This document shows, piece after piece, positions 8,520 through 63,062 of a DNA stretch of 64,000 bases. Origin of the DNA: Octopus vulgaris (taxonomy: Eukaryota); NCBI GenBank assembly GCA_951406725.2, contig OX597836.1, forward strand, positions 24,428,001 to 24,492,000. The letters are read 5' to 3'. The translations under genes and the position numbers were made by a program. A model generated the notes under the pieces. It searched no databases. It was not told the DNA's origin and saw only the letters and a list, made by a program, of their open reading frames with translations. Position 1 is the stretch's first letter, and each line of letters starts with the position of its first letter.

Positions 8520-8956
8520 ATTTATATATAGGCATATATGTGTATATATTTTCATGTATGTATACATGTATGTATGTTTATATATATATATATATCTACA
8601 TATATGTATGTGTGTGTACAGATATACATGTATACCCATCAACACGTGTGTGTGTCTATGTGTGTGTGTGTGTATGTGTGTGTGTTCATGGGTTCTCCCA
8701 ACTAGTTTTGTTTTTGTTGTCTTCAGACGGGGGCGGGTTCTTTCCCCCTGATATTCTTTTGTTAACGTCTTGGTCTAGTTCTTCCTCTCTCTCTTACGTT
8801 TTAACCTCGTCTTCTTCACGATTCCCTTTCTAATACACACACACACACACACACACACACATACGCACACACATACCAATAAATATACAGGCAACTGCGA
8901 CCAGCACACACATACATACACACACACAGACAGAGTAAAACACTCTATTTCCCAGC

Positions 8957-9010
8957 ATGGAAGATGAATCTGTTCGCCTTATACCTGTTGCCTCTCGTGC
9001 CGATCTTCGG
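8957..9010 (+). promoter_or_regulatory. Overlapping upstream ORF (first part) in Wnt10 exon 1
   Basis: ATG at 8957 in context AGC-ATG-G, out of frame with the Wnt10 ATG. It reads MEDESVRLIPVASRADLR and, after splicing, AFK* (stop at 41717-41719). Confidence 0.5.
8964..9010 (+). CDS. Wnt10: Wnt10 coding exon 1 (signal peptide MNLFALYLLPLVPIF-G)
   Basis: ATG at 8964 with an in-frame TAA upstream at 8880-8882. It encodes a hydrophobic 15-aa stretch and ends at a canonical donor GG|GTGAGT at 9010/9011. The phase-2 end matches the acceptor at 41708, giving ...PIFG-HLSNDIL. Linkage across 32.7 kb is inferred. Confidence 0.75.
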
Positions 9011-9455
9011 GTGAGTACAAAATACAATTACAATAACAATATTAACCATCATAATATTAATAATATTTATAATACTGTAATGATAAAAATAATTGGAGCC
9101 AAAGGATAATCATTATAATAATGATAATAATGGCAGAATGTTATACGACGACCATGGTAGATAATCATTCTAATGTCAATTAATAAAGAATATGAATAAT
9201 ACGAATGATGATGATGATGATGATGATGATGTACAAAATATTAATGATGATGATGATGGTGGTGGTGGTCATAAAGATAATTATATTTATAATTGTTGCT
9301 AGAGGAACGACTGTAACATTCATAAACAACCGACAATACAAGCCACAACCATAAGTAACACATACACACACATTTTATACATACTCATATATGAATACAT
9401 ACATACATATATATATATATATTTATACAAAGACACGCACACATACATACACATA

Positions 9456-15249: not shown

Positions 15250-16560
15250 AACGGTGAGAACTTTCCTCCTGTAACAAAACAATATCTCACAATGCAATAT
15301 TGCAACAGTGAGATATCGATAAGTGGGATACTTGACTGGACTATACAGGAAATCCACTCCATATACTGAAAAATCCTCAAGATTCTGATTTTAACAACTA
15401 AGCTTCCATAGAAACAATGATATTGACCGACTCTATCTCAGAAGAAAAGAGGGAAGAAGATGCTTAAGATCAGTTCAGACAGCCTTCGAGTGCCGCATTA
15501 TATCACTCAGTATCTGTTAAATAACGGCATCGGAAGTACATACATAGACCAGATGCTCAAAAAGGAATTAAATAACATTCTGCGGGCCAACAGTAAACTC
15601 CTCCAGAAGCAATCATTTTCTGATGTCTCAATCACAATCCCACACGAAGCCAGAAGAGCAAAGCTTACATATCTCAGTAAAGACCTAGAAGAGAAACCGT
15701 CTACATACCACAAAAGGGTTATACATGGATCTTGATGATGATAATAACATGATATCTAACCTCTCTTGGAACTGTAACCATCAATCTCGAAAGTTACTCT
15801 TTTGCAATCCAAGAGCAGGAGACAACTATGTGATACCGAATGGACAAGCAAGAGAGAGCAACCTTTAAAATCCCCAGAAGTTGATTATGTCACTCTGCTG
15901 TGGATGACATAACATGTATTATCAGCAGCAGCTGTTTCAAAGTATCATCGAGGTATTAACTCCCAATGCTGTATGATGTTGATGCTAAACCAATATACAA
16001 CGCTATCCGCAGAGAAAAAGATTGCCCTGGGATAAATATAAGCACCGCCTCTATTAAGGAAGACACACTTATCAGAACAAGGAATATTGACAGAACATTT
16101 CCATCAAAACTGCTATCTAGTGCAAAAATAACGAACCTCACATAATGACTTGGGACGGAGGAAAATGTCATATACAGTCATAGATGCTAGTTACCCTGAA
16201 AATGTGAATATCTCTTCCAAAAATCAACCAGAAGAGTGATATTTACGGAAAAGTACTTCGAAACCAGCGCCTTCTCTACACTGGTTATAAATTCAAAGTT
16301 ATACCAATAGTTACTGGAGCACTTGATTATGTTAGTAAATGTCTAAGTCATAATCAAGAACGGCTAGAATTTTCAAGCAAAGAAGAGACCAGGAAGCACG
16401 CACTTACGAATATAGAGCGGTATATAGAACAGTAAAAATATGCAAGATTTTTCTAAAGTTCAACATGGAAGAATTCGTTGTTGTTATCCGAATTCCAGCG
16501 ATGGAACTTCTGTTTCTTTGTTAGAAACCAGCTTCTTTCAACAAAGAATTCTCATAAATA
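15250..16560 (+). mobile_element. Decayed R4/Dong-clade (RLE) LINE, 3' part
   Basis: Broken frames give ESYSFAIQEQE, DDITCIISS.C.KVSSRY*LP..DV.AK (zinc-knuckle region) and YKFKVIPIVTGAL. An A-rich tail lies near 16558-16575. Confidence 0.65.
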
Positions 16561-16588
16561 AAAAAAAAGCAAAATATACATATTCATT

Positions 16589-17000
16589 AGGCACAGGTGT
16601 TGCTCTGTGGTAAAAAGCTTGCTTCCCAATTACAAGGTTCCGAGTTCAGTCCCACTGCATGGCACCTTGGGCAAGTGTCTTCTCCTCTAGTCTCGCGCCG
16701 ACAAAAGCCTTGCGAGTGGGTTTGGTAGACGGAAACTGAAAGAAGCCCATCGTATGTATGTATATACGTGTGTGTGTGTATCCCCTTGTGTTTGTGTTTG
16801 TCCCTCACCGACTCTTGACAACCGGTGTTGGTGTGTTTACGTTCCCGTAACTTAATCTTTCGACAAAAGAGACCGATAGTATAAGTAGTAAGCGTTAAAA
16901 ATGATAAGTTCTGGGATTAATTTGCTGGACTAAAACCCTTCAATGCGATGCCCCGACATGGCCGCAGTCTGATAACTGAAACAAGTAAAAGATAAAAGAT
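16589..17000 (+). mobile_element. SINE family A, full length
   Basis: Head, CORE-like segment, short internal microsatellite and tail are all present. Confidence 0.8.
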
Positions 17001-17261
17001 ATAAAGACATACATACATACACAAAGTCGCACATTTATAAGAGCAGGAGCCAGACGGTTAAATCACCCTTATTACAGACAAAGTAACGATAATAATGATT
17101 TCTTTCATTGGCACAAGGCCACAAATTTACAGTGAAGGTAAACAGAAGGAAAGATCAGCTTCCGGTACATCAGAGAATCTAAAACTACGACAGAGAACAG
17201 TGAAACACAGCGTCAACATTGGCTGGATTTTAATTCAACAAGTAATAGCGGGAGGGTGACA

Positions 17262-17425
17262 GTCGATTACATCGATCCCAGTACGCAACTGGTACTTAAT
17301 TTATCGACGCCGAATGTATGAGAGGTAAAGTCGACCTCGATAGAATTTGAACTCAGAACGTAGTAGTGGACGAAATACCGCAAAGCATTTCGCCTGGCGT
17401 GCAAACCATTCTGCCAGCACACCGC
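17262..17425 (-). mobile_element. SINE family B copy
   Basis: Reverse complement of the family B head and central domain. Confidence 0.75.
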
Positions 17426-17588
<163 letters not shown>

Positions 17589-17589
17589 G

Positions 17590-18575
17590 AAAGAAATAAG
17601 AGCGAGCTTGAGGAAATGGAGAGAGAAAAACCGGGGAAGAGATGACAATTAAGGAACTGCACCCAAAAAGCGATATTGATAGACTGTATGTGCCTAGGAA
17701 CAAGGGAGGAAGAGACCTCATAGGATGCAAGATCTGTGTTGCTAACGAGAACTGTCTGGGATGGTACATCAAACATCAAGATGCTATTAGAAATAATAAC
17801 ACGATACCTACCGAAAATGTGACGCACCCAAAAACATTTAAGAAACAAAATGAAGAACAACGAATAAACAACTGGAAATGAAAATAATGCAAGGGCAATA
17901 CCTCAGAGAAATCGAAGGGAAAGACAAGGCCAACAGCTTGGGGTGGCTAAGAAAAAGTGATCTGAAAGGATGCACTGAGGCATTGATATGCAGCGCCCAG
18001 GAACAAGCTCTAAGAATTAATTACACTAAGTTCCAAAGAGATAAGAGCAATGAGTTGCGACTTTGTAGAATGTGTGGCAGCAAAAACGAGACAATCCTAC
18101 ATATTGTGAGTGAGTGCAGAAAGCTGGCCCAAAAATAAGCACGATGACTGGCTAAGTTTGTTCACTGGAGACTATGTAAAAAGTACTGACTGAACAGAGC
18201 ACGGAAATGGTACAAACATGAACCAAATAGCGTCACTGAGACCAACGAATATAAGATCCTGTGGGATTATATAAGGCGGCGAGCTGGCAGAACCGTTAGC
18301 ACGCCGGGAGAAATGCGTAGCCGTATTTCGTCTGCCGCTACGTTCTGAGTTCAAATTCCGCCGAGGTCGACTTTGCCTTTCATCCTTTCGGGGTCGGTTA
18401 AATAAGTACCAGTTCCGCATTGGGGTCGATATAATCGTCTTAATCCGTTTGTCTGTCCTTGTTTGTCCCCTCTGTGTTTAGCCCCTTGTGGGTAGTAAAG
18501 AAATAGGGATTATATAATCCAATATGACTTCCTAATCGACGCTCGGAGATCAGACATTGCTGTGGTAGATGAACT
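17590..18575 (+). mobile_element. R4/Dong-clade LINE fragment following (TAA)n, interrupted by a SINE
   Basis: LHPKSDIDRLYVPRNKGGR, WLRKSDLKGCTEALICSAQEQAL, zinc knuckle CRMCGSKNETILHIVSEC, and RLE motif KILWDYIIQYD..I.ARRSDIAVVD split by the SINE at 18275-18505. Confidence 0.88.
18275..18505 (+). mobile_element. SINE family B (Meta-domain-like), full length with 12-bp TSD
   Basis: TSD GGGATTATATAA at 18263-18274 and 18506-18517, and a B-box-like GAGTTCAAATTCC. The central GCCTTTCATCCTTTCGGGGTCG.TAAA...GTACCAG resembles the MetaSINE domain as I recall it. Confidence 0.85.
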
Positions 18576-18582
18576 AAAATAA

Positions 18583-19722
18583 TGTAGGAATGGAATTAGG
18601 GATTGAAAAGCGCGCTGTATTGTTAATAAAACGAGGAAGATTTGAAGGAAGCCATGGAATTGAAATGCCAACTAGGCAAACGATGAAATCAGCTGAGAAA
18701 GGACAGTGGTATAAGTATTTGGGAAAACTGAAGGCAGACGAAATAAAACACGAGGAAATGAAGTAAATTACAAGTAGGTAGTATATACAAGTAAGGAGTA
18801 TATAAGGAGAGAAAAGAAAATATTACAATTAAGGCTGAATTTAAAAAATGTTATTGAAGCAATAAAATCAGGAGCAGTATCACTTACCAGGTATGGAGCT
18901 GGAAATGTGGATTAAACAAAAAGCGAAATGCAGAAGCTTGACTGAAAAACTAGAAAGCTGTTGACTAAGTATGGAGCCTAACACTGAAAAGCTGACACCG
19001 GTTGTACATGAAGAGAGACTAGGAAGGAAGAGGCTTAATTGCTGTGGAAGACTGTGTGCAGATGGAACGAAATAGCTTACTTGGTTATTTGTAGAACATC
19101 ACAGAAAAGTCACTGAAGGCAGTGAATAATGAACAGATGATGAAGACTGGAAAATGAGAAAGGGACAAGAATGAAATTAAAAACGAACATGTTGAAAAGT
19201 AACCTTTCCATACTCGATATTGGAAACCCACTGAGTATGTGTGTGGAACAAAATCCTGGACTTGGTTGAAAAAAGGGCGATTTTAAAAAAAGAAAGTGAA
19301 AGCCTTATTGTAGCAGCTTAAGATCAAGCGCTGAAAACTAACATCTTGAGAAAATATGTATATGGGAAGAAGGTAGCTGGAAAAGGTAGAGTATGTGGAA
19401 TTCGTGATGAAACAATGGCACACGTTGCGGAATGTCGTAAGTTGGCTTAGGAAGAATATGAGAAATGGAAGTATAATTACGTTGTGAAAGTTTTACACTG
19501 GAAGTTTTGTCAGAAATGGGAGTATGATGCAGAAAGCACATGGTACGATCATGGGGTAGAAAGAGTACTTGAATCGGAAACATGCAAGACTTCGTGGCAT
19601 TTTTCCACTCAAACGAATAAGATGGGACATAACAAACCAGATATTATTATGGTAATAGACAAGAAAAATCGAATTTGCATACTGATTGATCCATCATGTC
19701 AATTCGATTCCAGGATTGTGTA
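18583..19722 (+). mobile_element. Second R4/Dong-clade LINE fragment (RT C-terminus to endonuclease)
   Basis: GMELGIEK, YKYLG, KTRKLLT.YGA, GRGLI.VEDC, then LHWKFCQKW...HNKPDII.VIDKKNRICILIDPSC.FD, with many stops. Followed by (TAG)n. Confidence 0.85.
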
Positions 19723-19731
19723 GTAGTTAGT

Positions 19732-37797: not shown

Positions 37798-39286
37798 TAT
37801 ATAAGCGTATATATCTATGTATGTATACATTCCTTTATATATATGGGTGGATTTATAGATGGATATATATGCATGTACATAGAGCGAGAGAGAGAGAGAG
37901 AAAGAGAAAGAAGGAATGCATGCGTGTGAAAGGTTAGAGGGTTCGGTGGATGCATGGCTGTGTAAATGTTTGTAAGTGTAAGTGTTGGCCTATATGTGAG
38001 TTAGATATGCATGTATATTTGTATACCTGGATATGTGTATATGCATATATGTATGTATACAGGTATGTGTGTGTATGTAAGTAAATATATACATATACAC
38101 ATCTACATAGATATAATTGTGCAGGTGTGTATGTATACATATGTATGTGTATGCACGTATGTATATATGTTTGTATGTGGATACACGTACATTTGTAAAT
38201 TTATATATTTGTATATCTTTATATGTGCCTAGAGACGTCCATCTCTATGGAAATTGCTTTATCCTGACGCATTTATTTGGATGCATACCTAACAAAATGC
38301 AGTTGCATACATTTGTCTTCAGTTGTATAGGATGTAAGCGGATTTAAACCTAATAAATATCTTACTGTAACATGGTCTTATTAATCCAAACCTGTCTGAA
38401 ATACCCAGTTCAAAATTTGTTAAAAAAAGCTACTAACACAAATATCATCTACAGGCTCCTGTCAGGCGCTACTGTGTGACAGATTGAATTGAATTATAAA
38501 CGTTCTTTCATGGACCCTAAACCAAACACAAATGACAAACTTGTTTACGAAGAATCTTGATTAGTCACAAGAAAACATATATCGTAACTTGAAAATGATA
38601 CATCTTTATTTCCATGCCTGATTAAACCTTTAACAATCAACCACTATCAAACCAGATTAACTCTCTCTACCACACCTTTCCCCGACCCTAGAAAAATAGA
38701 CATTTCTTCTATAATTCTCTTTCCTCACCTTCCTACACAGCCATTTCCCTTGTCTGCATTCACCACACGTAATTCTCATTGACATTACTTCACCTACTAA
38801 AGGTATATATCTATATATTGACAGGGAGAGACAGACAGATACAGAGAGAGGGATGGAGGGAGAGAGAGAAATGATGGTGTTTACAAAGCGTGTGGAAATG
38901 TTGACTTCTATAATCTGGACCAATCAAACGTCACCAAACCAAGAATTCCATTATTGGATTTCTGTGGAACTTCTGGCAATGAGTTTGAATTCCGTCGACG
39001 GCACCAACTGCTAGATTTACAGCAATTTACCCAAGAAGTATTTGGCCAAAAATTAGGCCAAGAACGTCGATTTTGTATTTTGAAACATTTTAGCATGCTT
39101 CTGATACTGATTTCAACTTAGTTAAAAATTAAGAGATTGTGGTAATTCGATTTATTTTCGAGAGAATTCCACTGGTATTTTTTACAGCAAAGTCAGCCTC
39201 ATTAAACTCTGTTTCTGGTAGAGTATTACAGTATACAATAGCTATAATGACGTTAATGAATTGTAAATATAAATAACGTAGTTAAT

Positions 39287-39412
39287 ACTTATGTGTAAGA
39301 CTGTAAGTGACAAGTCGTCAAATGTGAAAGACTTACGTGAAAGACTGTAAGTGACAAGTCGTCAAATGTGAAAGACTTATGTGAAAGACTGTAAGTGACA
39401 AGTCGTCAAATG
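39287..39412. repeat. 44-bp minisatellite, about 2.9 copies
   Basis: Unit ACTTATGTGAAAGACTGTAAGTGACAAGTCGTCAAATGTGAAAG starts at 39287, 39331 and 39375. Confidence 0.9.
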
Positions 39413-39989
39413 ACCATAAATAATCATAAGGTAACAAATTAATGACTTGATAATTCACACAACTAACAGATCATATACAGATAACTTGTGACCCAGACAA
39501 ATCATAGACAGTCAAATCATAAACAAATATGCCATGGTACTGTAACAAATCATTAAATGGACAATTATATCATATCACACATAGATAAATCATAAATTGA
39601 CAAATACGTGGTGAAACGAACTCCTTTTTTTCTTTCTATAAGCCCGGTACCTGGGCTTTCGTTGATTGTTTTAGCTACCTATGCTGTCACGAGCAGATAC
39701 AGACACAATGCCGGCCCTCCCACTTCTCCTGAAATTGTGGAACGTCGAAGATGTGACAGCTACAAAGAAAGAGAACTGTACCAGCATTAGGCTGATATAA
39801 ATTCTGTCTGAATAAACTGACGCGACGCAAAGAGGAGTATCTTGCCAACACAGCATACTGCCTCTTCCAGCGACTGAATTCGCAACCGTTCGTCAGTTCA
39901 ACATTCTCACCGATAGGCTAAGCGTCTTCACCAAATAGATATTTACTTATATGTATATGGGAGCATCAGCAGGGCCTCTAGCTAAAACC

Positions 39990-40215
<226 letters not shown>

Positions 40216-40610
40216 GGAAAAGTAAAGACTATTAAAAGACGAAATTGCAAAAATGTGGACTATGAGGAGAGTGTCTATCATACCAGTAGTTGCAGGGTCA
40301 CTCGGAGCACTAACAACCAAGTTCGAGAAATATGTAAGAGAAATAGGAATTGATACGAGAGCAGAGCAAGCCCCCAAAACTGCTCTGCTGAGGACAGCTA
40401 GGATTTTGAGATTGGAACATGGATGTTGAATATCTCTCACGATAATTAACCGAGTATCAAAGCTCATGATGTGCGGAAAAAGGCCCTGTAATATCTCTGG
40501 CAGCAGGTTGCCTGTCCGCTCTCACAGAATCTACCAGAATAAACAAGACCGAACATTCTGAGAAGTAAAACAACAACTACAATAATAATAATGATAATAA
40601 TAATAATAAT
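40216..40610 (+). mobile_element. 5'-truncated R4/Dong LINE 3' end inside (AAT)n
   Basis: LKDEIAKMWTMRRVSIIPVVAGSLGA...KTALLRTARILR...*, then a short 3' UTR and an (AAC/AAT)n tail. An (AAT)n/(GAT)n array lies immediately upstream. Confidence 0.8.
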
Positions 40611-40747: not shown

Positions 40748-40887
40748 TATATTAAATTAGAGATAAAACCACTATTAGACAAATCAAAGAATGAAAAACT
40801 TAAACCAATACATAAAATTAATTAATTTATATTATTTTAAATATATATCAAAAGTATTAAAAGTTTAATAAAAGATAAAGAGTAAAA

Positions 40888-40956
40888 CACTACGATCGTT
40901 TCATGGCTGTCCAATTCGTAATAATTCGAGTTATGGTTACAGTCAATCTTCAGGTA
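40888..40956 (-). ncRNA. Type I minimal hammerhead ribozyme (Penelope-like element type), antisense to Wnt10
   Basis: Minus strand reads TAC-CTGAAGA-T-TGACTGT...ACAGCCA-T-GAAAC-GATC-GTA-GTG. The core is intact, stem II pairs 6 of 7, the stem III loop GATC is palindromic, and stem I is a short 3 bp. Confidence 0.7.
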
Positions 40957-40975
40957 ATTCAAATATTTATCTTAG

Positions 40976-41705
40976 CGATATATATATATGTATACTATTT
41001 CTCTCTCCCCTTCTGTGTTCCTTAAACACTTATACCCCCCCCCCCCCCACACACACACACTCATAATATATATATATATATATATATATATACATTTATT
41101 CCTTTTTAAAACGTTTTCTTTATTTTCTGCTTTCTCATTTTATTACTGGTTTTTCATTTTATTTTCATATTTCCCACACGGCAATACACTGACAACTGTT
41201 TGTTGATGACGGAATATCAACATTTACATTTGGTCTTAAATCAACTGAAATTCTATACCAACTTCCGCGTGATTCAAAAATTACCCACACTGGAACTCTT
41301 GGTCACGATGATCTACATGGAACTGTTATAAATTCTTGGAATGAAACAATTTCTTATTCTGAAATGCTATCTTTCATGTCCACAACAACATCAAAATATT
41401 CTGCGTTTTACATTCATAAAAAATGCCAACATTGAATGTACCAAATTCTCCGAATTATTCTTATAAACATTTACACGCCTATAACATTTTATACCACAAA
41501 CATATTTGTAAAATTGAAAATGCATAACTGCAATCGCATATCTTACCTACGAATATATCACGCATGCTCACACTTGCACACATATCTTTACGCATAAACA
41601 CATCCACTATATATGAATATATGTGTTTACACACGAATGTAAACGAATATATAAACGCATGTCTATCTTTATATCTTTGCACTGGGGATATGGTGGGGGT
41701 GAAAC
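40976..41705 (+). promoter_or_regulatory. 730-nt AG-exclusion zone before the exon-2 acceptor (putative distant branch point region)
   Basis: The last upstream AG is at 40974-40975 and the next AG is the acceptor at 41706-41707 (checked line by line). Pyrimidine tracts lie at about 40998-41022 and 41098-41175. There is no pyrimidine tract next to the acceptor. Confidence 0.8.
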
Positions 41706-41707
41706 AG

Positions 41708-41973
41708 GCATTTAAGTAACGATATTCTACGCCTTCACTTAGCCACTGATCCACCAAATCTCGATACGAACACTGTCTGCATGAACTACCCGTATCTATC
41801 AACAGCCCAACTAGAACTCTGTAAGTTATACCCCGATGTCACAGCTTCGGCCATACAAGGCGTCCAAGTCGCCGTCCATGAATGCCAACACCAGTTGAAA
41901 ACACATCGATGGAATTGTTCCACTTTGGAGACTAAAAATAAAAATCCAGAATTTAGTCCTGTCTTTAAACGAG
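41708..41973 (+). CDS. Wnt10: Wnt10 coding exon 2
   Basis: Translates HLSNDILRLHLATDPPNLDTNTVCMNYPYLSTAQLELCKLYPDVTASAIQGVQVAVHECQHQLKTHRWNCSTLETKNKNPEFSPVFKRG. The NDIL..L, NTVC, PDV.ASAIQG.Q.A.HECQHQ and RWNCS.LET.NK motifs are those of Wnt10a/b. Acceptor is AAACAG|G, with an in-frame TGA at 41700-41702 limiting the 5' extent. Donor is G|GTAAGT, phase 1. Confidence 0.95.
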
Positions 41974-43762
41974 GTAAGTGCCATACATAATTGCTTGTTT
42001 GCTTCTTCTAATAATCTCCAATAACAATATTATTTAACATAAACAGGTTCCTCCTGTGTGCTTCTCCAAAAGGGATTGCGTAAGAAAGAACTGCCACGGA
42101 CAGAAAGATTTCAATGGAATCATCTCCTCGTCTTTAAATTTGGAATATTTCGGCCGAGTGCTATACAAACCGATCAACCAAAAACATTAGCCTGGAAGTG
42201 AGGAATACAATCTCTTATTTATAGATTATGAGTGGTCTTGATCTCGGTACAAATCATCGTAGAGAAGTTTAGAGCAAAGATTTCGATTAACATAAAGTCA
42301 TGTTTTATTTGGCAATTGAGGGGACAGTTTCACGTAGTATTTTATGGGTGGGGGTCAATATGTTTCGATGTTGTGAGTTATGATATTGATATAGCGATAT
42401 AAGGGTTAATGATGGTAGGAGTGAGAATATATGAATTGTGACAGTAGGTCAAAAGGAAGAAGTGCCTGTTGGGTGGAAGACTCTGGAATGTGGATTACGG
42501 TACCGTTTGGTAGAAGTTATATAGAGAGAGAAACCTACGATGTGTTTCATTCGCTGACATCGTTAATGTGTGTGAAGTCGAAACTGTTAAAACGACCGAT
42601 GTGAATTAAAACAACGTGTAGCAAGAAAAAAATTTAGAAAATTTCAAGTGAAAGCGGAACTACTGAAATAACTTTCTTCTGAATGTGTTCTTTGCATGGA
42701 TAGAATTCGGTTTGTTATCGCAGATTTATGCCAAAGATCCCAAAGATTCCAAACAAATTAATGTGAGAGTCACAGCTGGTCACAGAGTTAATAAAATGTT
42801 GAACTTTCAAGAGAAAGGTCTTTGGTTTATGTCACATCACCATATGACTATGGTCGAGACATTTGATTAGCCATCACAAGAGTCCACTCCACTGCAAATT
42901 GGTATCACAACGAAATTCAATTCACTGCTGTAAGTAGTGAAATATCTGTGTAGTTAGCTCCGGGTACTTGATGTTTTGAACTCACGAATATGTTCCAAGC
43001 TATGGTGAGTTTAAGCTTGTGTAGTGAGAGAAATCGGTGAAGTTGAGAACTGCTATGAAGAAGTAGATGTGGTTAGGCGGGTCTTCTATAAATTAAAAAA
43101 AAAATGTTTGAGTTGAGGTGAAGCAGAGTCGTTCATTTCTATATATGAGGCTTTCAGATTTCAATTCAGAAATGTGTCGTTTCAATGCAATCTCTGTGTT
43201 GTCTCTGCTAGTCTGTTTCTGTTCAGATTGATATTTCATAATTTATTTCGAGTTTTGCATAGTATAGATGAAATTTGTTTACTCTCTGCGCCTGGTTAAT
43301 TAAAACTGGCTTCGTCAGCTGCTGTTCTCTTAGTTTCCGAATAGTAAACGTTAACAGTGGATGCTTTGATTCAAAGAATCAAGGTGAACAATAAAATTAA
43401 CGTAAACTATGTTTAAGAAGAGCAACAAACTCAAGACTTGGGGCCATCAATGGTCAGGACTTCCTTGTACGCGATATTGTCTTAACAACTAACTAATAAA
43501 TGGTGCGCAATAGTTTCGTGAATAAGAACTATATTCTACCAGGCTACAAGAGAGGCTCTGTACAGTCGCAGGACCTGCTTTTGAAAAGCAGGCAATCTCC
43601 ATCAAATTACACCCTACCATCTGAAAGAAAGCAAACATCGCCCTCTGGAAGTATCTGTGATAAAATCAAGAAAATATGACATTAACAGATTGAGTCATTT
43701 GTTGAGAGCTTCTCAACCAGGTTCCCTTAGGGGTTCATAAAAGATTTTGTCGTTAAAATGTA

Positions 43763-57875: not shown

Positions 57876-58962
57876 ATGGAAGTATCCAAAGAGTATTTGA
57901 GGCACATAATGCTTTATGAGTACAACAGAAGGAAACTCTGCAGCCGAAGCGACTTGAAACACACTCAGTTTATGGGAAAGAATGCTTGAATGAAAGAATT
58001 TGCAGAAGATGGGTTGCAAAATTCAGAAGTGGAAATTTCAGCCTTGAAGATGAAGATCGAACAGGACATCCAGTTGAGTTTGATGATAAGCTCCTTGAAG
58101 AAATCCTACATTTTCAGTTGAAGAATTGGCAATAAAGCATAGTTCAAACAAACTGTTCATCGTCATCTTCAACAACTTGGAAAGGTTCCAAAATTTGGAA
58201 AATGGGTGTCTCATGAATTGTCTGAAAGTAACCGCAAATCTCGAGTTGACATCTGCTCTTCTCTCCATTCTCGCGAACTCATTTCACCCTTTTTGGATAG
58301 ACTTGTGACTGGTGACGAAAAATGGATCTTTTATCGAAATGTTAACGTCGTAAACAGTGGCTTGGTAAAAGGGAAAAAGCTCAACCACAACCGAGAAGGG
58401 AAATTCATGGGAAAAAGTTTCTTCTCTCTACCTGGTTGGATTGCAAAGGAGTAATTCACTTTGAATTATTACCACCTAATGCAACAATCAATGCTCAAGT
58501 CTATTGTCAGCAATTAGAGCGTTTGAACCAAGCTTTGAAGAAAAAAAGACCCGCTTTAGTGAATCGAAAAGGAGTGGTGTTTCATCAGGACAATGCGTGA
58601 CCCCACACTACAAAGATCACATCACAGAAGATCGAAGAGCTTGACTGGGAAAAAATTCTTCATCCACCTTATTCTCCCGACCTTGCTCCTTCAGACTACC
58701 ATTTGTTTCATAGTTTACAGAATCATTTGGGGGACATAACTTTCGCAAGCCAGGAGGAGGTTGCAACTGACATTTCAGAGTTCTTCGCTTTGAAACCAAA
58801 AGAGTTTTACATTGATGGGATTAAAAAGCTTGTAAATAGATGGAAGGAAGTCGTACATAATCAGGGAAAGTACATTGATGATTAAATTTCAATTAAATGT
58901 AACATTTGATCACTTATTTTCTTTATTCAAGATTCGGACAGAACTTATGGGATGACCTGATA
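57876..58962 (+). mobile_element. Decayed mariner transposon (DD34D transposase pseudogene with 3' TIR)
   Basis: MEVSKEYLRHIMLYEY..., WVSHEL, LVTGDEKW, HQDNA*PH and HPPYSPDLAPSDYHLF, with 34 residues between catalytic D2 and D3. It has frameshifts and stops. The 3' end is ...GAACTTATGGGATGACCTGA-TA; no 5' TIR was found. Confidence 0.92.
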
Positions 58963-61930: not shown

Positions 61931-62799
61931 ATGTATGTATGTATGTATGTATGTATGTATGTATGTATGCATGTATATATACACACATATATACAGGTGC
62001 GTGTAATCTTTATAGTTTTAACAGGGCAAAGTTCAGCTTGCAGTTATGCAGTTCCCTTTTATCATATACAGATAAGGTATTGACAAGAGTCAATTCAGAA
62101 AATCGTTGATCTATTTTCCACGTTTACTCTTTCATTGCAGTTAGTGTCTCGTGTGGACGAAGTGGTGTACATACACACCACTATGCTTATATTCGTAGAT
62201 GTTAGGTTCTGATTCTTTTAACGTATTAAGTCTTTCCTCTCCCTGCCTAAAAGAATCCCTTTAATATTGCCTGGTGTAGCTAAGTTATTGTCCCCGTAAA
62301 ACCCAATACCTTTGATTTTAAGTTTTACTTTGAATATATCTAAGCTCCGAAATCCGATGAACTCACAATTTCTACACTGCCCATAGAACCCATACTGATA
62401 TCAAAGCACATATACTATCTTTCACCTTGTGGAAATAAGAGAGATTGGCGTGGTGCATCATAACACTACGTTGCTGTAATTTATGGTACAATATATTCTT
62501 TTAAATTTCGCCGCCTTTTAAAGTTTTAAATGGATAGGTACAGTGTTGAAGTGAGTAATAGTAGTGGACATTGTATTTGAGGAATGTGAACCATTTCACT
62601 AGACTAATTAATGGTATTTAAAAATACTCTTACAATACTTGACTAAATTTACAACACTCATTCCTACTTTCTCTCTTTTGCTCCCTCCTCCTACTCTGCT
62701 TCATCATCCCTCTCTCATCATCATCTTCATTCTCTGCTTTCCCCTTTCTTTCTTTGTTATTTTCTGAACCTACATTTTTTTTTGTTCTGTCTTCTACAG

Positions 62800-63062
62800 G
62801 TTACAGAGAGACAGCCTTCGCCCATGCAATTAGTGCTGCCGGTGTAACGCATCAAGTCTCCACAGCCTGCAGTCTGGGTAAGCTTCGGTCATGCGGTTGT
62901 GACATGACATCACACGGTCCAGCTCTCAGCTGGGAATGGGGTGGCTGTAGTCACAACATCGAATTCGGTGACCACTTCGCCCGAAAGTTCCTCGATGCTA
63001 AAGACACGGCGAAAGATATCCAAGCACAGATCAACCTACACAACCATAGAGCTGGACGACTG
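62800..63062 (+). CDS. Wnt10: Wnt10 coding exon 3 (gene continues beyond the window)
   Basis: Translates (G)[87 protein letters not shown]. The acceptor has a long pyrimidine tract and CTACAG|GT, phase 1 matching exon 2. Donor is CTG|GTTTGT, phase 0. The exon with the CKCHG motif is not in this window. Confidence 0.95.

Follow-up and report, generated by a model that had tools for sequence, protein, structure and literature searches.

A 730-nt AG-free zone before a used Wnt10 acceptor in Octopus vulgaris points to a probable distant branch point

Vertebrate acceptors with an AG-exclusion zone have been described in which the branch point and its pyrimidine tract lie 100-400 nt upstream; the second step of splicing takes the first AG downstream of the branch point, and AGs inserted into the zone capture splicing (PMC1431707, here and below as excerpts of that report describe them). 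Among them are PTB exon 11 (zone of 381 nt, branch point at -351), nPTB (zone of 438 nt), GABBR1 exon 23 (zone of 288 nt, branch point at -275, the distant branch point tested there being the heptamer CACTGAC) and alpha-tropomyosin exon 3 (branch point at -175) (PMC1431707). In human, 165 of 67,334 zones reach 150 nt or more, and in the human tyrosine phosphatase sigma gene (PTP-sigma) a zone of 1126 nt fills an intron of 1132 nt, against 229 nt in mouse (PMC1431707). For exons of HTR4, MBNL1 and CLK, mapping placed the branch points close to where the zone begins on its 5' side, as we propose here (excerpts of Corvelo et al. 2010, PMC2991248), and the same holds for OGDH exon 4b, where transposon insertions can add or remove competing branch points (excerpts of PMC7969005). 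Human minigenes have also been described in which distal branch points beside a near one have modest effects (Taggart et al. 2017, PMC5378181, in excerpt).

This layout has been known since at least 2006, and the zone that we describe here, at the end of an octopus Wnt10 intron, is an extreme test case of it and not a new mechanism. The zone lies in a 64-kb stretch of Octopus vulgaris DNA, which we call the window and in whose numbering all positions are given (Table 1). Our search of the literature on cephalopod and octopus branch points, lariats, introns and splice sites turned up neither branch-point studies in these molluscs nor a description of this case, and the matches listed for Wnt10 combined with branch terms made no mention of Wnt10.

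Table 1. Features of the Wnt10 locus referred to in the text; negative numbers are distances from the first base of the exon at 41708
Feature	Position	Strand	Basis
Upstream Wnt10 exon, start codon at 8964, donor GT 9011-9012	8956..9010	+	sequence; junction contigs
Dispersed repeat of recent origin within an AT run	40755..40978	+	genome matches, aligned copies
AG-exclusion zone, 730 nt	40976..41705	+	AG counts, shuffles, context model
Distal pyrimidine tract 1, 89% pyrimidine	40996..41022	+	composition
Putative branch point CTCAT, A at 41063 (-645)	41060..41064	+	motif scan
Distal U-rich pyrimidine tract 2, 77% pyrimidine	41098..41178	+	composition, motif scan
Single-copy spacer of ordinary composition, 520 nt	41186..41705	+	copy search, composition
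Putative branch point CACTGAC, A at 41192 (-516)	41187..41193	+	motif scan
Near pyrimidine tract, 21 nt, 76% pyrimidine, -46 to -26	41662..41682	+	composition, scoring
Acceptor rich in G and poor in pyrimidines, with the used AG at 41706-41707	41684..41707	+	scoring; RNA-type contigs
Coding exon of Wnt10, length of 266 nt not divisible by 3, donor GT 41974-41975	41708..41973	+	sequence; contigs

Like PTB, nPTB, GABBR1 and alpha-tropomyosin, the octopus locus has an AG-free stretch running up to the acceptor, tracts and branch point candidates placed toward its 5' end and normal AG density upstream, and like GABBR1 it contains a CACTGAC candidate (PMC1431707). It differs from exons of the PTB/GABBR1 type in its mollusc host, in a zone made mostly of sequence of ordinary composition, in a branch point that is a candidate, and in a predicted distance beyond the mapped 100-400 nt, for which we claim no length record. 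With PTP-sigma it shares a very long zone and several candidate, unverified branch points, but the human zone takes up nearly the whole intron, whereas the octopus zone is the end of one of 32.7 kb. The zones of HTR4, MBNL1, CLK and OGDH differ in being 101-291 nt long and largely pyrimidine tract (PMC2991248, PMC7969005), and the OGDH layout serves mutually exclusive exons, while we found no partner exon for the octopus Wnt10 exon. The distal branch points described as a holding state (PMC5378181) are alike in that a distal and a near candidate occur in one intron; they rest on vertebrate lariat reads, and the octopus case on sequence and contigs.

The original prediction was that the + strand carries no AG between the one at 40974-40975 and that of the acceptor, and this proved correct: none is present in 730 nt, the longest AG gap of the window, where base composition predicts ~24.7. 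When the zone was compared with 20,000 shuffles of itself, as had been proposed, no shuffle contained fewer than 11 AGs. Masking of tandem repeats leaves 655 nt, in which 24.2 AGs are expected; with the same masking, and with all 16 dinucleotides considered on both strands, no other gap in the window corresponds to more than 10.3 expected occurrences. A context model conditioned on flanking bases, for which 190 other loci from this genome served as training data, expects 23.6 AGs in the zone (log10 P of -12.5 for none). The depletion concerns sense-strand AG specifically: the zone contains 23 GA and 46 CT, the latter being AG on the other strand.

Most of the zone had also been described as ordinary, non-repetitive sequence with ample A and G. 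That description fits the single-copy spacer; the first 210 nt (40976-41185) are G-poor (10 G, ~3 AG expected), so that the significance comes from 41186-41705. Within this spacer there are 66 G, 22 GA and no AG against 23 expected, and the loss is even, with 5.9, 4.4, 3.1 and 6.8 AGs expected in four successive 130-nt blocks. With the 88 nt nearest the acceptor left aside, the rest of the zone yields by itself a log10 P of -9.4, a depletion that a near branch point cannot explain. In the flanking intron the regular AGs that had been reported were measured at one every 15-17 nt; there is one per 17 nt both in 38500-40560 and in the dispersed repeat that borders the zone, these two being separated by a 193-nt low-complexity AG gap. 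At the level of sequence, the locus has three of the attributes by which the class is recognized: an AG-free stretch at a used acceptor that goes beyond repeats and composition, with normal AG density upstream.

By raw length alone the zone is unexceptional in our genome sample, which contains AG gaps of 1820, 904, 878 and 859 nt, each of them almost entirely tandem repeat. It is the content that sets it apart: none of 140,890 sampled AG gaps has 40 or more unmasked G, against 73 in the zone, and the number of such gaps extrapolated genome-wide is ~0.013, a rough figure whose tail estimate reaches far past the data. The long reach of that extrapolation, together with the ~3e8 AG gaps of the genome, is what can be said for chance, mutation bias or assembly error as the source of the AG absence, which we nonetheless regard as highly improbable. 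Against chance, the extrapolated number is far below one and the zone ends at a used acceptor; against assembly error, 466 of the 730 nt (41183-41399 and 41431-41679) recur with no substitutions in two independent intronic contigs of other samples, and DNA-type runs under three organism labels contain 0.91-1.00 of the sampled words. Those intronic contigs (X8, X9) came from a word-ranked run search and are uninformative on lariat build-up. Spacer length can vary, as one contig of another sample has a 4-nt insertion at 41621, which creates no AG.

The sequence of the exon that follows the zone identifies the gene as Wnt10: it encodes a Wnt domain (Pfam PF00110, E 5e-14), each of its 52 protein hits that names a subfamily names Wnt10, and it is 95% identical to O. 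bimaculoides Wnt-10b. The upstream exon, which encodes a signal-peptide-like N-terminus, is in frame with it, and O. bimaculoides isoform X1 has an identical N-terminus and junction. RNA-type contigs in which 41708 directly follows the donor exon ending at 9010 show that the acceptor is genuine and in use. These contigs come from three of four runs (X8, X12 and X19, representing three studies and two organism labels), whose RNA nature is deduced from the exon-exon joins, and two of them run on into the exon at 62800, onto which the 266-nt exon is spliced. The contig pieces listed have neither joints nor loose ends within the zone; contigs drop rare forms. An acceptor-like tract with AG is present at 8945-8955 and one contig extends 166 nt upstream of the junction, so there may be an extra 5' exon ahead of 8956, and the numbering of the Wnt10 exon after the zone as exon 2 is uncertain. 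The next Wnt10 acceptor is itself preceded by 195 AG-free nt (62603-62797), which are pyrimidine-rich and in which ~3 AGs are expected.

The acceptor itself is weak. Its pyrimidine fraction of 0.21 is below that of all 89 comparison acceptors and its score is above just one of them, a contrast that is inflated because the 89 were chosen by a self-trained score. Within 40990-41700, a single change would create an AG at 302 sites, and 137 of these would then score higher than the acceptor. The statement that it has no adjacent pyrimidine tract was accurate for the last 24 nt, which are pyrimidine-poor, but overlooked the near tract, which is 76% pyrimidine and spans -46 to -26. Upstream of it there are weak candidates for a branch point at about -54, -66 and -79, the first two read directly from the sequence. 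We could not learn a branch point motif from the 89 acceptors (YTRAY enrichment 1.08).

The near tract raises an alternative in which there are two branch points, a distal one that acts part-time or as a holding state and purges the AGs, and a near one (-54 to -79) that is mostly productive. This arrangement, which we consider unlikely, draws on a tract that, given a terminal AG, would reach a near-median score of 6.6. Distal branch points coexist with ones in the expected zone in human introns, where the near one mattered more in three minigenes (PMC5378181, in excerpt), and MBNL1 exon 9 has branch points at -31, -41 and -229 (PMC2991248, in excerpt). The octopus near candidates are weak, however, with one YTNAY at -79 and the rest ending in A, and between the tract and the AG there is a G-rich run of 25 nt. 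A comparable candidate at -51 was dispensable in PTB exon 11 (PMC1431707).

Two segments of the zone look like acceptors that are one base short of an AG. One is 41155-41179, a tract followed by GG at 41178-41179, and the other is the near tract, which ends in AC at 41681-41682. The former would score 7.3 with an AG in place and the latter as given above, and both are possibly dead or forbidden acceptors.

The features expected of a distant branch point are found in the 5' part of the zone. The two strong upstream pyrimidine tracts of the original prediction are both present, with short runs of C, CA and AT between them; the CTCAT candidate is followed by an AT run and then by the second tract, inside which there are several YTNAY candidates, for example A41137 (-571). 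The CTGAC predicted at 41189-41193 is also in place, and belongs to a CACTGAC that is the sole YTRAC of the zone and among its best U2-type matches. Downstream of its A there is just a short U/G-rich run and no strong tract. The YTNAY candidates at -645 to -541 have a tract downstream, whereas the best U2-type match at -516 does not. Past CACTGAC, 470 nt of ordinary sequence extend to the near tract.

The reading that best accounts for these data is a branch point about 515-650 nt upstream with selection of the first AG, and on the sequence evidence we consider it probable. U2 snRNP and U2AF would assemble at or near the second tract, with A41063, A41137 and A41192 as candidate branch points; the first step would proceed without the AG, and the second would find the AG at 41706-41707 through a first-AG search. 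Any AG arising in the spacer would become the splice site and leave intron sequence at the beginning of the Wnt10 coding region, so that selection would remove it. The zone most likely grew gradually or through slippage that added no AG, since 520 nt inserted at once would have carried ~23 AGs. Human exons with distant branch points are often skipped, alternative splicing being typical of them and not obligatory.

Several observations favor such a branch point. AG loss across the whole spacer is explicable solely by a branch point upstream of about -500, the zone ends exactly at the used acceptor, and the local acceptor is weak. The placement of tracts and candidates below intron of normal AG density is that of the verified cases (PMC1431707). 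The spacer folds no better than its shuffles (z of +1.0 to -1.5 in four windows), which speaks against looping-out that would shorten the distance. Other observations count against it, or against the distal site as the only one: A41192, the best match of U2 type, is not followed by a strong tract; the near tract has weak branch candidates of its own; beside a near branch point, distal ones had modest effects in human minigenes (PMC5378181, in excerpt); and, to judge from the different lengths of the PTP-sigma zone in human and mouse (PMC1431707), zone length need not equal branch distance. A41192, as far as motifs can tell, is one candidate among several and is downstream of both strong tracts. 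The original prediction of a branch point 500-730 nt upstream with a purge of AGs was supported in part: the acceptor is used and the AG loss is significant, while the position of the branch point is a matter of inference.

Two more specific forms of the distant branch point can be distinguished. In one, there would be a single branch point at a distance of more than 500 nt, from which the spliceosome would cross unstructured, ordinary RNA to the first AG; we advance this tentatively, as a possibility that falls a little short of an even chance. In the other, which strikes us as very doubtful, a branch point at more than 500 nt would be combined with AA-to-AI editing of the spacer as an off-switch for Wnt10. 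Editing of A to I is heavy in cephalopods, and acceptors made by editing exist. Under the editing reading the 63 AA pairs of the spacer would be latent acceptors, AI being read as AG; AA is barely depleted there (0.99 against a background of 1.09), the spacer shows no excess folding, and two low-depth contigs covering 466 nt have no changed letters that would point to editing.

The composition of the spacer bears on a further alternative, in which there is a near branch point alone and the AGs were lost through slippage of AG-free CA/AT units or through selection for protein-binding elements. We judge this improbable. It is favored by the 3' half of the spacer (41446-41705), which is mildly self-repetitive, with 18 repeated 7-mers against 6.8 in shuffles (a count reached by none of 500), and by CAC, ACAT and TCTT, which are about 2-3 times more frequent in the spacer than in the background. 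Yet 41186-41445 is not self-repetitive, its count being reached by 165 of 500 shuffles, and it contains 14 GA and no AG; decayed CA/AT repeats should, we reason, drop GA and AG alike.

Other candidate functions for the zone were tried and set aside. A hidden coding exon was rejected, as proteins from the two open frames (80 and 73 aa) gave no Pfam match, and so was a structured RNA, as an Rfam search gave no match at E <= 1 and folding showed no excess. A 113-nt periodicity was unconvincing, its scores being reached by 162, 16, 57 and 431 of 500 shuffles. The inverted repeats, among the 25 of 46 that were listed, were AT runs alone.

The upstream border of the zone is set by a young dispersed repeat with at least 52 matches at 94-100% identity (1541 candidates, 40 scored); its ends and a common motif recur in 11 of 11 aligned copies, two of which have an extra T. 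The repeat carries 13 AGs, including the one at 40974-40975 that is the last before the zone. These AGs, at -733 to -950, are apparently tolerated, which would place the branch point downstream of ~40960 if the insertion is viable and fixed. Elsewhere in the genome this AT-rich repeat often occurs in AT runs as back-to-back inverted pairs (e.g. G000:C4:128685240-128685633; L195).

The same repeat contains a donor-like CAG|GTAATT at 40951-40959, 20 nt upstream of the last AG, and the AG|GT that it supplies allows a recursive scheme in which the donor at 9011 is joined to the AG at 40952-40953, a donor is re-created and a 754-nt AG-free sub-intron is then removed. We think this scarcely likely. 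The motif comes with the repeat, which is young and present in many copies, while an AG purge would presumably need a long time; the tract at the site is weak (score 2.2); and no contig among those listed ends at 40952-40953 with exon sequence, contigs being prone to drop rare forms. The site does not match a recursive splice site, which would combine a strong tract with an AG|GT junction seen in intermediate reads. Recursive splicing would, moreover, itself still require a distant branch point to explain the absence of AG.

To return to the distant branch point, the original prediction had also proposed that such zones are a general way in which this genome tolerates repeat expansion between branch point and exon. 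This was not supported, as the spacer is single-copy and nothing comparable was found elsewhere in the sample; such zones appear to be rare in this genome. When AG-exclusion length was sampled at other acceptors, the upper-bound zone stayed below 300 nt at all of 90 other exon loci (Wnt, myosin and kinesin); eight had a zone of at least 150 nt, with a maximum of 269, and none of the 90 expects more than 4.1 AGs. At the 89 score-picked acceptors the median zone was 43 nt and the maximum 261. A scan of both strands of 190 partly overlapping loci, 1.27 Mb in total, gave 8.9 as the highest number of AGs expected in any gap outside repeats. A genome-general strategy is thereby ruled out as a common habit (upper bound near 3%), and a rare class at the human rate may still be compatible with the sample of 90.

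For comparison with other animals we scanned metagenomes for Wnt10-like loci. A first scan found none and a further one found seven, of which five start mid-exon and were set aside. The two that span the orthologous acceptor belong to distant animals (61-62% identity) and have zones of about 45 and 33 nt, so that deep conservation gives no support to the distant branch point; going by these sequences, the long zone is not ancestral to all animals.

Should lariats map at -515 to -650, the locus would offer a naturally occurring test of the distance that the spliceosome can cover from branch point to acceptor, with a spacer that is ordinary sequence and not pyrimidine tract, ahead of an exon on which the reading frame of a molluscan developmental gene depends. 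If the reading is true, 313 single-base changes deep in the intron could disrupt Wnt10.

Three named octopod Wnt10 proteins (P0003, P0004 and P0061) begin at an internal Met of the 266-nt exon and lack the signal-peptide exon; an internal-Met start is annotated for O. bimaculoides isoform X2. Either the alternative 5' end of these short proteins is real, or their gene models miss this weak acceptor or the small upstream exon. Four Wnt genes are present within ~1 Mb (G000:C23:23.5-24.5 Mb), a neighbourhood that we take to be in keeping with a Wnt9-Wnt1-Wnt6-Wnt10 cluster. Within the window, broken reading frames at 57920-58885 and 15427-19723 presumably derive, to judge by their motifs, from mariner-type transposase and LINE-type proteins, respectively.
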